Below, piece after piece: positions 934-42,744 of a stretch of DNA of 43,152 nt. The notes below the pieces were generated by a model that saw only the letters and a list, made by a program, of their open reading frames with translations, was not told the origin of the DNA and ran no database searches. Position 1 is the stretch's first letter, and each line of letters begins with the position of its first letter. Both the position numbers and the translations under genes were made by a program. The DNA is from a virus. Taxonomy: Duplodnaviria > Heunggongvirae > Uroviricota > Caudoviricetes. The stretch is taken from IMG/VR virus record IMGVR_UViG_2778261177_000005. One strand, written 5' to 3'.

Positions 934-1066
934 CAATATTTTCCTCCCGCGCTAAAGATCACATAATTTTAACAAGAATGTTAAAAAACGCTGGACTCAG
1001 ACAGTAGAGTGTGTGTTATGGTTGACTATAAAGTCAGCGAAGGGAATGCTTCTGGCTTTTAACAGA

Positions 1067-1098
1067 TAAAAAGAGACCGAACACGATTCCTGTTTTCG
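1067..1098. repeat. attL: left copy of imperfect 32-bp direct repeat (taaaaagagaccgaacacgattcctgttttcg), host-derived remnant of the sdsR terminator
   Basis: Matches 42550..42581 with 3 mismatches (1073, 1082, 1094); identical 11-bp core acgattcctgt at 1083..1093. Confidence 0.7.
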
Positions 1099-1456
1099 TC
1101 AACAAACTACAAAATCTTTTAGAATTAATGTGTTAAATAAATTTCTGCTCATCTTTTAATCCCTAACACGTACCATTACATATTAATACATTCAATTAGT
1201 TACCATTTTTTTCGAGTTTTTTAGAGAAATTTTCGGGAATATTTCAGGTCAATCCATGCATACACAAGCAATTCCTGTATTGAATAATTCCGTAGCAATT
1301 ATGTAAAATCATCGCCGGCTGATTTTCATTCAAACTCGCGCTATCGAACGTCCATCAGCCAGCCGTGGCACGTTCTTGCATACGACGTGCTACGGTTTCA
1401 TTTATCTCCGACTGGAAACTTCTTATACAAAGTCGATACGCCAACATCATAGATGA

Positions 1457-1591
1457 TCGCTACCTTCAGGCGAGGAACTCCTGATGCAATATAATTTGTG
1501 GCTGGATTATCTGGACGCACTGGAACTGGTCGATACTTCCGGTGCGCCAGATATTGAATGGCCTACGCCTCCGGCAGTTCAGGCCAGATAA
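1457..1591 (+). pseudogene. 3' remnant of a second, inverted tail fibre assembly gene (tfa')
   Basis: Plus-strand frame without a proper 5' part encodes ...MQYNLWLDYLDALELVDTSGAPDIEWPTPPAVQAR*, clearly similar to the C-terminus of the intact Tfa on the other strand (LDYIDAVTATDTSTAPDVIWPELPEA); the two C-termini overlap convergently at 1563..1591. Confidence 0.55.
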
Positions 1592-1973
1592 CATCCGGTG
1601 CGGTGCTGGTATCTGTTGCCGTCACAGCGTCGATATAATCCAGCACAACGTTAAGTCGGGTAGTTTCTTCTTGCGTCAGTTTGCGCCCGGCCTGCAGCTT
1701 TAACTGAATCACGCTGATATTGGCCATTGCTGCGTCTATCAGCGACTGTTTTTTCTGTTCAGCGTCAGCTACCAGTTCATCATGAGAACGTTCCGGAGGG
1801 AGCGGCGCAGTAAATACCCCGTCTGAATACGCCCAGCCGACTCCGGGCTGCTCACTGATATCAGAAATATTAATGAGCTGCAGATTATCCGGCACAGTGA
1901 ATTCATCCTCGCCATCCCAGACAATGACATTCACAACCATCCCATTTTCAATAACTGCATATGACGCATTCAT
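1563..1973 (-). CDS. tfa: tail fibre assembly protein (Tfa / P2 gpG-like)
   Basis: ORF 1563..1997 starts with TTG; ATG at 1973 overlaps the tail fibre stop (TAATG); C-terminal DTSTAPD-x-WPE motif typical of Tfa proteins; directly downstream of the tail fibre gene. Confidence 0.8.
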   Translation of the reverse strand: MNASYAVIENGMVVNVIVWDGEDEFTVPDNLQLINISDISEQPGVGWAYSDGVFTAPLPPERSHDELVADAEQKKQSLIDAAMANISVIQLKLQAGRKLTQEETTRLNVVLDYIDAVTATDTSTAPDVIWPELPEA

Positions 1974-3040
1974 TATGCAAACTCCTCGATAATACAAATC
2001 CCTGCAGCGCCTTTCCCGCCCGTCATACTGGTTCCGCTATAACCGGCATCGTATGCACCACCGCCACCTGAACCATATGCCTTGCCGCTAACACCACCGC
2101 CAGCGCCTGCGCGTCCACCGCCACCCCAGTACGATGTTCCGCCTTCACCGCTGACGCCGATATTTCCGGACTGACCGTCGCCTCCACATCCACCAATGAT
2201 GTTTATATCGCCAGTACTCGGCACACCTCCGTTACCACCGTTTGTGTTTGTGACTCCTGACTTTCCGCCGCCTGCGCCACCAGGAGCAATTAACGATGCG
2301 AATAAGCTATTACCGCCATTGATGCCGTACGTCGCACTAACACCACCGGCCCCACCTGCGCCGATAGTGACTGGATAACTATTCTGTGTCGGGGTCATTA
2401 TTGAAATTATTGTTCCACCGGCCCCACCGCCAGCACCGAAAAACGTTTCATTATTGGATATAGCCTTGCAGCCGCCCCCTCCGCCACCGCCGCCCGTTAT
2501 TGTGACCCTGATCCGTTTTATTCCTGGCGTCGGGGTGTACGTACCTGATGACGTGAAAACCCGGGTATTCACCAAGCGTCCCACGTATCCGTTTGTAGCT
2601 CCCAAACCAAGATAATGAATAACCTCCTGTTTGCTTGTTTTAGCCAGAATATCCCGTCCAACATTAGTCAGGGTTGTCAGGCTGGCTGTATCATTCCCCG
2701 TAAAATACGGTAGTTTGTCTGCCGCAGTGGCAAGGCCTGCCAGTGCGGTCAGTGTGGCGTCAAGCGCCTGGAAATCCTTCCCCAAAGCCGCTTCCATTTT
2801 GGAGATAAACCCGTTCAGGTCACCATCATCAAGCACATCCAGCCCACTTTTATTAGCTGTGTACTGTGCAAGCGCTGCCGTAATAAAGCTGGCCTGTCGA
2901 ATGGCTTTGTTCACCTGCGCACTGGATGCTTTCCCTGCTGTAAATCCGGATAAAAGCGCAGGCAACGCTTCCCATTCCTCCTGCGACATAACATTGGCAT
3001 TTTTACCCGTTGCGAATGCTTTAAAGTCATTTTTTGCCAT
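1973..3040 (-). CDS. stf: side tail fibre protein (P2 gpH-like) with glycine-rich C-terminal half
   Basis: N-terminal region with LPYFTGNDTASLTTLTNVGRDILAK, typical of side tail fibres; Gly-rich C-terminus (GGGGGGGG, GAGGGAGG); start is ambiguous between the coupled ATG at 3040 and the ATG at 3058. Confidence 0.8.
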   Translation of the reverse strand: MAKNDFKAFATGKNANVMSQEEWEALPALLSGFTAGKASSAQVNKAIRQASFITAALAQYTANKSGLDVLDDGDLNGFISKMEAALGKDFQALDATLTALAGLATAADKLPYFTGNDTASLTTLTNVGRDILAKTSKQEVIHYLGLGATNGYVGRLVNTRVFTSSGTYTPTPGIKRIRVTITGGGGGGGGCKAISNNETFFGAGGGAGGTIISIMTPTQNSYPVTIGAGGAGGVSATYGINGGNSLFASLIAPGGAGGGKSGVTNTNGGNGGVPSTGDINIIGGCGGDGQSGNIGVSGEGGTSYWGGGGRAGAGGGVSGKAYGSGGGGAYDAGYSGTSMTGGKGAAGICIIEEFA

Positions 3041-3720
3041 CAGAGTAATACTCCCCATGCCCCTACATCAAAACCACTGATGAATTCGTTATCCATATCA
3101 AAACCAAAAAATTTTGAACCTTCCGATGGGGTTTCCACCGAAGGTGTTTCAATGCCACCCGCCCACACACCGGCGGCTTTTACTGTGAGATATCCCTGTT
3201 TAATTGCAGCAATTAACTCACGCGATACATCTGAAATATCAGTATCAGGAAAGACCCAGACCGATATCGTCATGTCCTGGTTATCGACTATCTGCATTCG
3301 CAGTCCGGATCCTGCTGTTGCAGCGTCAAGAATTGCCGGAAGCGAATCATTCCGTCCGTCCCAGTTATTAATCGCAATCTTCGCTTTAAGAATGACACGA
3401 TAAGTTTCATCGCTGAGATACATGTATCCTGAATCAGGATCATATGGCCCCTGCCATACCCCCTGATCATACCCAAGCCCGTCGGTATCCCAGCTGAAAT
3501 AGACACCTGAGATAAGCTGGCTGACAACACGGCTACGTCCGATCCACAATCCCAGAATGTCAAGTTGCACACCAACCGCAGAGTCAATATCAAATGCAGT
3601 AATCAGCCCTCTGGTGGCAGCCGCAACATCAATAAGCGGCCGGGTCATCAGATCAACATGTGCAAGAAATTTAGGTTTGGTGGCGTGGTAGTTTGTGATT
3701 AGTTCGGTGTATTTGCTCAT
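3040..3720 (-). CDS. baseplate/tail protein, P2 gpI-like (YmfQ/DUF2313-like)
   Basis: 226 aa; ATGA overlap with upstream gene; sits between the gpJ-like and tail fibre genes as in P2-type baseplate modules. Confidence 0.55.
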   Translation of the reverse strand: MSKYTELITNYHATKPKFLAHVDLMTRPLIDVAAATRGLITAFDIDSAVGVQLDILGLWIGRSRVVSQLISGVYFSWDTDGLGYDQGVWQGPYDPDSGYMYLSDETYRVILKAKIAINNWDGRNDSLPAILDAATAGSGLRMQIVDNQDMTISVWVFPDTDISDVSRELIAAIKQGYLTVKAAGVWAGGIETPSVETPSEGSKFFGFDMDNEFISGFDVGAWGVLL

Positions 3721-25575: not shown

Positions 25576-25732
25576 AATGACGCCCTCTGGTGGTTTCTTA
25601 ATAACTCACCACCGACGACGCCAATCATCTGGTGGTGAACTGTGCAGGGTTGGCGTAACCGGGAAACCGACCGGCGCGGATCTCTCCGCCCCCACACAGC
25701 CCACCATAATTCAGATGTGCGCGTGCATGCGA

Positions 25733-25758
25733 CAATAAAAAACACGCTCGCGGCGTGT
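25733..25758 (-). terminator. tR'-like terminator of the short late leader transcript
   Basis: Minus strand ACACGC-CGCGA-GCGUGU followed by UUUUUUAUU, about 55-80 nt downstream of the PR'-like promoter. Confidence 0.6.
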
Positions 25759-25819
25759 ATCTGTCGCGGTCTCTATCCAGGACGCCAATCCCGACGCCAG
25801 ATTTTGCTGGCGCGTGAGG

Positions 25820-25849
25820 AATATAGCCCCGGATAACAGATTGAGTCAA
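25820..25849 (-). promoter_or_regulatory. PR'-like late promoter (sigma70 -35 TTGACT / 18 bp / -10 TATATT)
   Basis: Minus strand ttgactcaatctgttatccggggctatatt; the -35 overlaps the Q-like stop codon, the classic lambdoid position. Confidence 0.65.
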
Positions 25850-27845: not shown

Positions 27846-28001
27846 TTACTCCTCAGGTTCGTAAGCTGTGAAGACAGCGACCTCCGTCTGGCCGGTTCGG
27901 ATTCGTACCTCGCAGAGGTCTTTCCTCGTTACCAGTGCCGTCACTATGACGGTAATACAGATGACGATCAGGGCGACTAACATCGCCTTTTGCTGCTTCA
28001 T
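27846..28001 (-). CDS. hok: Hok/Gef-family type I toxin (HokD/RelF-like)
   Basis: 51 aa MKQQKAMLVALIVICITVIVTALVTRKDLCEVRIRTGQTEVAVFTAYEPEE; single TM helix then conserved Cys; RBS AAGGAG; in-frame upstream extension in ORF 27846..28058 in the mok position. Confidence 0.85.
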   Translation of the reverse strand: MKQQKAMLVALIVICITVIVTALVTRKDLCEVRIRTGQTEVAVFTAYEPEE

Positions 28002-28292
28002 AGCCTGCTTCTCCTTGCCTTTCGGCACGTAAGAGGCTAACCTAGATTTGCCGTTCATAGATTGAGCCTCAGATTAATGTTAAGCGTCTTGCAGGACGCG
28101 TAATGTTAACTGGGGCTCTTCTCTATCTGCCTTTTGGTGTTCATGCCCGAGGCAGATAGCCTCAAGCACCCGCAGCAATTTTACTTAACTCCCCTTTTCA
28201 CGCAAACCGTTTTTATCCCCAGCGGCAAATCGAATACACCACCAGCGCCACCGCCATCGCAATTCCTACCGTTGTGAATGCTTCAGGCCAGG

Positions 28293-40613: not shown

Positions 40614-40808
40614 ATGCGGTATGAAAAAGTCAAACCATGTCCGTTTTGTGGTTGTCCATCAGTAACGGTGAAAGCCATTTCAGGATATTATCGCGCAAAG
40701 TGTAACGGATGCGAATCCCGAACCGGCTATAGTGGAAGTGAAAAAGAAGCACTCGAAAGATGGAATAAACGAACTACTGGAAATAATAATGGAGGTGTTC
40801 ATGTATAA
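40614..40808 (+). CDS. Lar-family restriction alleviation protein (RalR-like)
   Basis: ORF 40599..40808; ATG at 40614 gives 64 aa with CPFCG...CNGC zinc-ribbon; position after recT as in Rac. Confidence 0.55.
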   Translation: MRYEKVKPCPFCGCPSVTVKAISGYYRAKCNGCESRTGYSGSEKEALERWNKRTTGNNNGGVHV

Positions 40809-40989
40809 AATTACTGCCACTATTGAAAAGGAAGGTGGCACTCCTACTAACTGGACAAGATATTCAAAATCTAAATTAACGAAATCAGAATGCGAAAAAA
40901 TGCTCTCAGGGAAAAAAGAAGCAGGCGTGTCCAGAGAGCAGAAAGTAAAGCTGATAAATTTTAATTGCGAGAAACTTCTGTCCTCGTGA
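40801..40989 (+). CDS. small hypothetical protein
   Basis: ORF 40732..40989; ATG at 40801 has RBS GGAGG; 62 aa. Confidence 0.4.
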   Translation: MYKITATIEKEGGTPTNWTRYSKSKLTKSECEKMLSGKKEAGVSREQKVKLINFNCEKLLSS

Positions 40990-41095: not shown

Positions 41096-41377
41096 ATGAA
41101 TCTTGTGACACTCAAAACGTGGGGAAAACTCAGATATCCGGATAACCCACCATCAATATCAACGCTGAGACGATGGGCAAGGAATGGAAACATTTATCCT
41201 GCACCTGAACTACACGGGAGGAGTTACAGGGTGGTTCCGGAGGCTTTCTATATCAACCCAAATAAGGTTGATACCGATATAACACACCATCAGCCTAATG
41301 GGCGACAAGGGAGAGACAGTCCGTTACTGGAGAAATTAAAACATGCAGCGGAAAAAATACGATCCCAATTTGCCTAA
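41096..41377 (+). CDS. xis: excisionase (Xis)
   Basis: ORF 41090..41377; second ATG (41096) has better spacing to RBS AAGAGGT; 93 aa; immediately upstream of and overlapping int. Confidence 0.7.
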   Translation: MNLVTLKTWGKLRYPDNPPSISTLRRWARNGNIYPAPELHGRSYRVVPEAFYINPNKVDTDITHHQPNGRQGRDSPLLEKLKHAAEKIRSQFA

Positions 41378-42419
41378 AAACTTAACATATCGAAGGAGGG
41401 ACAAAGCATATTACTGGCGCAACCCTCTGACGAAAGAAGAATTTACACTAGGTAAAATTTCAAGAAGAGATGCAGTAGCGCAGGCAATTGAAGCAAATCA
41501 TTATATATACAAAAACTACTCTCCTGCTGCCTTAATTGAAAAGCTTAAAGGGTTCGACTCATTTACTATGGCAGACTGGATTGAACGTTACAAAACGATT
41601 CTTATAAGGAGAAAAGTGTCCAGAAATACTTATAAAATCCGGGTAAATCAACTGGAGACAATAAAAGAAAAATTGGGAGAGATTTTACTGACAGAAATAA
41701 CCACTCGCCATATTGCCGAATTTCTTGATTTGTGGATTGAAGGAGGGAAAAACACAATGGCAGGATCAATGCGTTCTGTGTTGTCTGATATGTTTCGCGA
41801 GGCCATTGTTGAAGGACGTATATCTCAAAATCCAGTAACGCCAACAAGAGCACCGAAAATAGTAGTTACAAGAGAACGACTGAAACTAAAGACATACAAC
41901 TGCATCAGGGAGGCAGCAGATCAACTTCCGGCATGGTTCCCATTAGCTATGGATTTAGCCCTTGTAACAGGACAACGTCGCGAAGACATAACGAATATGC
42001 GGTTCAGTGATATTTATGATGATCGTCTCCACATCAGGCAAATTAAGACAGGAATGATGATTGCTATCCCCCTGTCACTCAGCCTTCCTGTCGCTGGTCT
42101 ACGGCTTGGTACAGTAGTTGAACGGTGCCGCCTGGTAAGCCGGGGAGATTATCTAATCAGTGCCGGGATTAGAAAAAACAGCCCTGACGGCAGCATTCAC
42201 CCGGATGGCCTGACAAAAAAATTTGTCGCAGCCAGAAAATTAACAGGTATCCAGTTCAGTGAAAACCCACCAACTTTTCACGAGATCAGAAGCCTGGCTG
42301 GACGATTGTACAAAGAAACATGTGGAGAAGAATTTGCTCAGCGTCTACTTGGCCACACATCGGAGAAGACAACAAAAATGTATCTTGATGAGAGAGAAAA
42401 AACGTACTTACTGCTCTGA
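41343..42419 (+). CDS. int: tyrosine integrase (lambda Int family)
   Basis: 358 aa; C-terminal catalytic region with ...[11 protein letters not shown]... and ...[13 protein letters not shown]...; xis-int overlap; adjacent to attR. Confidence 0.9.
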
Positions 42420-42549
42420 TTTTAACGTAAATGGATTGTTAAATGTATTTTGGTTGTGATATAACCAAAAAAGACCGGAATACAGAAATTCGAGTAAATT
42501 TCGGGGAATTTCGGGGAGACGCTTGCAACTGATTGATTTTAAATACAAT

Positions 42550-42581
42550 TAAAAAAAGACCGAATACGATTCCTGTATTCG
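42550..42581. repeat. attR: right copy of the 32-bp direct repeat (taaaaaaagaccgaatacgattcctgtattcgg)
   Basis: Matches 1067..1098 with 3 mismatches; forms the 3' terminator hairpin of sdsR. Confidence 0.7.
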
Positions 42582-42653
42582 GTCCAGGGAAATGGCTCTT
42601 GGGAGAGAGCCGTGCGCTAAAAGTTGGCATTAATGCAGGCTTAGTTGCCTTGC
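42551..42653 (-). ncRNA. sdsR: SdsR (RyeB) small RNA
   Basis: Minus strand reads GCAAGGCAACUAAGCCUGCAUUAAUGCCAACUUUUAGCGCACGGCUCUCUCCCAAGAGCCAUUUCCCUGGACCGAAUACAGGAAUCGUAUUCGGUC + U-tract, which matches my recollection of E. coli SdsR; terminator stem CCGAAUAC/GUAUUCGG. Confidence 0.8.
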
Positions 42654-42744
42654 TCTTTAAGAATAGATGACGACGCCAGGTTTTCCAGTTTGCGTGCAAA
42701 ATGGTCAATAAAAAGCGTGGTGGTCATCAGCTTAAATGTTAAAA

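Follow-up and report, generated by a model that had tools for sequence, protein, structure and literature searches.

A tail-fibre assembly gene (tfa) that is met head-on by a short piece of a second, inverted tfa raises the question whether this prophage once carried an invertible host-range switch and, if so, how it was lost. The locus lies at one prophage end within the window, which is the whole stretch of 43,152 nucleotides analysed here. A sequence-only reading had proposed that positions 1288-1591 contain a remnant of the second tfa in the geometry of the invertible segments Mu G, P1 C and e14 P, that the alternative fibre exon and the invertase are missing and have left an AT-rich stretch (1099-1456) behind, and that the fibre is locked in one state. 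The core of this reading, namely that a lost switch has left behind part of its inverted second tfa, is supported by the breakpoints against an intact relative, Escherichia coli DEC5E, and by the remnants of both genes, tfa' and pin'. Judged by this comparison, the locus is in all likelihood a scar left by a deletion within an invertible tail-fibre segment of the Din family (Gin/Cin/Pin type) at the prophage end.

The first genes of the window are chromosomal E. coli genes, yebW (1-276; Pfam DUF1482) and, on the minus strand, pphA (277-936); the prophage begins after pphA, and the window ends in yebY. The pphA-side end of the prophage carries the following feature.

1067-1098, no strand: att core repeat, a partial copy of sdsR/ryeA

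This repeat of 32 nt recurs at 42550-42581 (90.6% identity) in direct orientation and marks both prophage ends. The integrase open reading frame (ORF) is located at 41343-42419, and SraC/RyeA and SdsR are found in full length at the integrase end (42547-42691). An Rfam scan of 900-1700 gave sub-threshold matches only, neither of which was counted as a gene; the weak partial RyeA/SdsR matches at 1064-1152 represent the partial copy at the att site. From the repeat ends, RyeA/SdsR and the placement of integrase and yebY it follows that the prophage has inserted between pphA and yebY, into the small-RNA locus sdsR/ryeA, and this locus serves as phage attachment site in Salmonella as well (PMC3333887). 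The deposited phage records vB_EcoM-611R5 and 606R2 share 98% identity with the structural genes, Salmonella phage SEN34 shares ~81%, and the prophage is a SEN34-like temperate myovirus of roughly 41 kb. Further inside the window, matches above the Rfam gathering scores were obtained for the C4 antisense RNA/isrK region (25628-25826), the sok antitoxin RNA of hok/sok (27996-28171) and the RalA antitoxin RNA (40807-40985).

A related prophage in DEC5E (E. coli O55:H7; locus L001) occupies the same pphA/sdsR site and contains the full switch, with the gene order pinE (minus), an alternative tip of 124 codons (plus), tfa' (plus), tfa (minus), fibre (minus), DUF2612 and baseplate J. Its inverted repeats of 20 nt (95% complementary; L001 8065-8084 and 9930-9949) match the published crossover repeat of the e14 P segment, CCTTCTCCCAAACCAA (PMC12529663). 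The geometry claimed for the window is thereby borne out, as an intact switch with e14-like repeats exists at the same site, and the comparison with prophages carrying complete segments, which the sequence-only reading had suggested, places the window as a ~1.2 kb deletion of this arrangement. As in e14 P/PinE, Mu G/Gin and P1 C/Cin, pairs of tip and tfa face each other and the invertase lies beside the segment, transcribed in the same direction as the constant part of the fibre. The window shares with DEC5E the site, the prophage end (98%), the baseplate and fibre constant region (96.7%), the 3' end of tfa' and a 29-bp overlap of the coding ends. In DEC5E, unlike the window, pinE and tfa' are complete and the alternative tip is present together with both crossover sites; the expressed tip and tfa of DEC5E belong to another cassette.

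In the window a single full set of tip and tfa is present (1563-3058, minus strand), encoded by two genes.

1563-1973, minus strand: expressed tfa, 136 aa (Pfam Caudo_TAP, E 3.6e-22; PHROG 188, E 1.6e-31)
1973-3058, minus strand: tail-fibre gene, 361 aa, with a glycine-rich C-terminal tip (Pfam Gly_rich_2, E 8.5e-14; PHROG tail-fibre families)

The expressed tfa is translationally coupled to the fibre gene via a TAATG overlap at 1971-1975, and its product covers the same range of the PHROG 188 profile as the intact Tfa' of DEC5E. RefSeq flags orthologues of this 136-aa Tfa as N-terminally incomplete pseudogenes (L002 4614-4964; L007 3968-4324). The ORF is however of full length, coupled to the fibre gene and matched by a full-length homologue in the lytic phage Goslar (64% identical), which suggests that the "incomplete" flag given by RefSeq/PGAP is over-cautious. 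The N-terminal part of the fibre (from 2807) shares 96.7% identity with its DEC5E counterpart. The tip cassette at 1491-2761, comprising the glycine-rich tip, tfa and the 3' end of tfa' (L003 5001-6271), is 98% identical (blastn) to cassettes of P2-like prophages, in which it is joined to a P2 H-type fibre and a longer tfa' relic remains beside the sheath gene. The cassette appears to have moved by horizontal exchange between unrelated myoviruses, a familiar process. P2-type phages have been described as carrying such relics, which is given here as background and not used as evidence.

The other set is reduced to a fragment of its assembly gene.

1487-1591, plus strand: tfa' remnant, the last 34 codons (Q114-R147) and the stop codon of a tail-fibre assembly gene in inverted orientation

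The remnant is read within a plus-strand ORF of 35 codons (1484-1591; translation MQYNLWLDYLDALELVDTSGAPDIEWPTPPAVQAR), the opening ATG of which (1484-1486) derives from the pin side of the deletion joint described below. This ORF matches Pfam Caudo_TAP (PF02413) with an E-value of 3.5e-9 (37.3 bits, cut-off 22.1), the match spanning only profile positions 100-131 of 131, i.e., the C-terminal 32, and the remnant is thus a Caudo_TAP fragment and not a complete family member. With 16/34 identical residues (E 2e-9) it is homologous to the C-terminus of the minus-strand Tfa, as had been claimed, and the convergent overlap with the intact tfa, predicted to be about 29 bp, is exactly that (1563-1591); in DEC5E the overlap of tfa and tfa' is likewise 29 bp (L001 8819-8847). 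Bases 1486-1590 are 100% identical to the 3' end of the intact 147-codon tfa' of DEC5E (L001 8742-8846), and the intact tfa' of phage vB_EcoM-606R2 (146 aa) ends in the same C-terminus. An 18-nt inverted repeat (1501-1518/1627-1644) links tfa' and tfa and might be taken as a sign that the plus-strand reading is due to chance or is a mirror artefact of the minus-strand tfa; the repeat however reflects two homologous genes facing each other, and this explanation is excluded with near certainty by the independent Caudo_TAP match above threshold together with the identical 3' ends of intact tfa' genes in DEC5E and 606R2. While the Tfa homology claimed for 1288-1591 is real, it starts only at ~1487, since positions 1-1495 are colinear with the pphA-to-pinE DNA of DEC5E. 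The DNA at 1288-1483 needs no Tfa explanation because it is colinear with the 3' region of pin, its other frames contain stop codons, and an apparent extension of the Tfa homology by "GEEL" is the microhomology of the joint itself.

Between the att site and tfa', two further features were assigned.

1099-1397, no strand: non-coding end of the prophage, reaching from att to the stop codon of pin, 98% identical to DEC5E (L001)
1398-1490, minus strand: pin' remnant, the stop codon (1398-1400) and the last 30 codons (I155-K184), the helix-turn-helix of a Pin/Gin-family serine DNA invertase

On the minus strand, 1398-1490 translates into IASGVPRLKVAIIYDVGVSTLYKKFPVGDK followed by the stop. It aligns with residues 155-184 of DEC5E PinE (184 aa; BLASTP 30/34 identical, E 2e-19) and matches Pfam HTH_7 (E 5.8e-6, 26.8 bits, cut-off 23.8), and the invertase is therefore truncated rather than absent, which contradicts the earlier claim that it is missing. 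From the domains of a serine recombinase, pin' contains HTH_7 and lacks the N-terminal resolvase catalytic domain; measured against a full-length invertase of ~180-190 aa, codons 1-154 are missing relative to DEC5E PinE, and the ORF list of the window contains no full invertase ORF. In RefSeq, the orthologue of pin' in strain R1 is annotated as an N-terminally incomplete helix-turn-helix pseudogene.

The AT-rich stretch at 1099-1456, regarded in the sequence-only reading as what the loss had left behind, is a normal prophage end which is truly AT-rich only at ~1100-1300: the GC content is 25-32% only there and 39-50% from 1250 to 1450. As 1099-1397 is found also downstream of intact pinE in relatives at the sdsR site, the AT-rich DNA is not the scar. 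The minus strand of 1290-1420 is predicted to fold with -49.1 kcal/mol (z -4.8) into a strong hairpin (~1300-1365) with a U-run, which is located 3' of the pin' stop and is probably the pin terminator. A fragmentary, sub-threshold Rfam match of 57 nt to the Shigella sRNA CssrB (1364-1420) overlaps the 3' end of pin and the hairpin. Taken literally, the sequence-only reading, in which invertase and exon are wholly gone, 1099-1456 is the AT-rich leftover and the tfa fragment extends over 1288-1591, agrees with the presence of the tfa' fragment and with the lack of a full invertase ORF, but is scarcely tenable in view of the 98% colinearity of 1-1495 with DEC5E, the surviving 30 codons of Pin and the occurrence of the AT-rich DNA beside an intact pinE.

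The preferred reading, a deletion scar within a former switch, can be followed to the base pair when the window is aligned with DEC5E DNA from both the pin and the tfa' side; this three-way alignment places the following joint.

1469-1490, no strand: deletion joint, with the crossover in GCAAT (1486-1490), preceded by the imperfect repeat GGCGAGGAACT (1469-1479)

Positions 1-1495 of the window correspond to L001 6052-7545 with 98% identity, reaching from pphA into the 3' end of pinE, and positions 1468-1748 correspond to L001 8727-9004. The microhomology GCAAT of 5 bp is present in the window (1486-1490) and at both DEC5E positions (L001 7537-7541 and 8742-8746), it is preceded by GGYGAGGAACT on both sides of the joint, and the breakpoint in tfa' carries the counterpart of GGCGAGGAACT as GGTGAGGAACT. 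As a result, 30 pin codons (1398-1490, minus strand) abut 34 tfa' codons (1487-1591, plus strand). Relative to DEC5E, 1,205 bp are missing, which include pin codons 1-154, the pin-proximal crossover site, the alternative fibre tip and tfa' codons 1-113. Compared with DEC5E the window has a clean internal deletion of ~1.2 kb, its exact size and content being estimated from a relative and not from a direct ancestor, as DEC5E is 86% identical across the tfa part and has a different expressed tip.

The ancestral order would have been the fibre constant part, a crossover site, tip A and tfaA facing tfa'B and tip B, a second crossover site, and pin. About 1.2 kb would then have been lost between short imperfect direct repeats (GGYGAGGAACT...GCAAT), one inside pin and the other inside tfa', and the mechanism may have been microhomology-mediated illegitimate recombination (slippage) that was not catalysed by Pin, the exact microhomology being only 5 bp. 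A deletion mediated by Pin was considered and rejected, as the breakpoints show no similarity to crossover sites. The lost part of pin includes the catalytic serine domain and, by analogy with gin, cin and hin, would have contained the enhancer in the 5' coding region. In each of these three genes, a recombinational enhancer that depends on Fis is established within the 5' part, and because the whole 5' part of pin is deleted, any enhancer located there would be gone.

For an inversion two crossover sites in inverted orientation are present in DEC5E; in the window a single, diverged site was found.

2595-2620, no strand: diverged pix/gix-like crossover site, GTAGCTCCCAAACC AA GATAATGAATAA, at the LGLG codons of the fibre gene

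In an alignment with the sites of DEC5E and ET791, the DEC5E site reads CCTTCTCCCAAACC AA GGTTTTCGAGAG; the half-site inside the invertible segment is conserved, and the outer half differs from DEC5E (GGTTTTCGAGAG) and from ET791 (GGTATGTGAGAA). Its core CTCCCAAACCAA, which matches the e14 repeat CCTTCTCCCAAACCAA just as pin' is PinE-like, is found once in the whole window. Pattern searches with up to 3 mismatches detected no full crossover site in the window, and an inverted-repeat search of 1000-3200 returned no crossover pair but the mirror homology of tfa and tfa', a palindrome within the fibre gene and a 15-nt pair (80%) that flanks the hairpin downstream of pin. The crossover repeats that had been suggested for 1099-1460 are absent from this stretch, and the lone site at 2595-2620 has no partner in the 43 kb. 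The comparison with DEC5E confirms that the alternative fibre exon is missing. Since a catalytic invertase, a partner site and an alternative tip are all lacking, the fibre should be unable to invert, even if a Pin-type invertase were supplied in trans, as PinQ, PinR and PinE act in trans on the e14 P segment in K-12 (PMC12529663). The claim that the fibre is locked in one state is supported by the same three losses. The glycine-rich tip, together with its cognate Tfa, would remain fixed to the fibre gene permanently, and the phage may still be viable with a single host-range state.

Unlike e14 P, the window contains a scar without catalytic domain, second site and alternative tip, its second tfa is 34 codons long, and it appears to be incapable of inversion. 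PinR and PinQ, orphan Pin-type recombinases of cryptic prophages of K-12, are not known to have an invertible segment of their own. There, an active invertase is kept without a segment; the window represents the opposite case, in which the invertase is destroyed and one fibre set is kept.

The exact joint is found in 3 of 5,426 complete E. coli genomes, each time at a different integration site.

R1 (L002): sdsR site, same as the window; identical joint
Br_190_kylling (L004): bioA-ybhB site; identical joint
EcE.CRE.COL (L009): next to intS at tRNA-Arg (argW/intS); identical joint with a different expressed fibre and tfa

All carriers share the crossover point, their flanks differ, two different expressed fibre/tfa cassettes occur among them, and the SNPs of pin' are shuffled between them. 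The pin-side DNA (1150-1490, coverage of at least 80%) is carried by 56 complete genomes and is followed by the joint in only one of these, R1; among the matches listed of these 56 genomes, a full pinE is present. With the identical joint at three att sites, a single origin of the scar in an ancestral phage and its later spread by mosaic recombination are probable and the simplest account, and the loss is probably older than the residence of the prophage at this site. A deletion in situ in the strain lineage after lysogenisation, i.e., a private decay that was not inherited with a phage module, is in line with the common decay of prophage ends and with R1 sharing the joint at the same site. 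We consider it unlikely, however, given the identical crossover at bioA-ybhB and argW/intS with different sequence downstream of pin, the different expressed fibre and tfa of one carrier and the shuffled SNPs of pin'. The occurrence of the same joint in four contexts could also indicate a recurrent product of a hotspot, generated either by an invertase at quasi crossover sites, which Din invertases are known to use, or by slippage at the same repeats. This is improbable, as neither breakpoint resembles a CCCAAACC-type site, a longer identity of 8 bp just upstream (GAGGAACT) is never used while all four carriers cross in GCAAT, and the other pin truncations of relatives have their breakpoints elsewhere.

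The homologies, the breakpoints, the missing parts and the single site are observed directly, and the remnants they define would be without function. A remnant kept for its function could act as a Tfa C-terminal peptide, which for example hinders the fibre assembly of superinfecting phages, or as a terminator of the late tail operon: the ATG at 1484 lies eight bases after GAGG (1472-1475) and opens 34 intact tfa' codons, the joint persists in several mosaic contexts, and a stable hairpin is located 3' of pin'. Such a role is nevertheless highly improbable, since the Shine-Dalgarno-like motif is weakened in EcE.CRE.COL (GAAGAA), the joint is carried by only 3 of 5,426 genomes and a terminator role would belong to the region downstream of pin and not to the tfa' relic; the fragment is moreover too short and too recently shared with intact copies for a selection test. 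We give hardly any credence to the more specific idea that the joint itself is not inert and that a fortuitous, translatable 35-codon ORF for the conserved C-terminus of the Tfa chaperone, or a module of scar and terminator, was retained and spread via interference with the fibre assembly of competitors or insulation of the late operon; if true, a functional joint would explain why prophages integrated at three sites and equipped with different fibre cassettes share one identical joint.

In relatives, the same switch has decayed several times independently.

RM8082 (L011): pin' of ~42 codons, followed by a serine acetyltransferase gene; independent decay
Phage 606R2: pin truncated at its 3' end; independent decay
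ET791 (L005): near-complete switch that has a recombinase, an alternative tip and multiple sites and expresses the same glycine-rich tip; IS1 in tfa'
IAI1: neither pin nor tfa', an acyltransferase gene instead
B18271 and CX12 (P2-like prophages): longer, differently truncated tfa' relics

Like the window, the decayed switches of RM8082, ET791, IAI1, vB_EcoM-606R2, B18271 and CX12 show a truncated pin and/or a tfa' convergent with the expressed tfa; they differ in their breakpoints and causes, which include the insertion of an acetyltransferase gene or of other genes, IS1, and other deletions. The prophage has a fixed tail-fibre specificity, and the significance of the locus is mostly local: the system is well known and only an inactive relic of it is left, decaying Din-type switches, like orphan pin/tfa fragments, are familiar from E. 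coli prophages, and no new question is opened. A literature search for papers on remnant invertible segments found none. The locus provides a base-pair-resolved case of the decay of a host-range switch by microhomology deletion at a moron-prone prophage end, its scar travels among mosaic phages and can be used as a lineage marker for the phage module, and it explains two short pseudogenes that annotation pipelines reported without context (R1, RefSeq).

The position of the lost switch holds cargo in several relatives, namely the serine acetyltransferase gene in RM8082 (L011 4449-5207), the acyltransferase gene in IAI1 (L007 2645-3712) and an ORF of 281 aa in phage 606R2 (L010 2579-3779), and the end of the prophage next to pin looks like a hot spot at which such genes insert. 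ET791 contains three crossover-like sites, two of them on the pin side (L005 2013-2043, 2545-2560 and 5108-5138), which suggests that the switch also exists in this phage group in a multi-site form resembling a shufflon.
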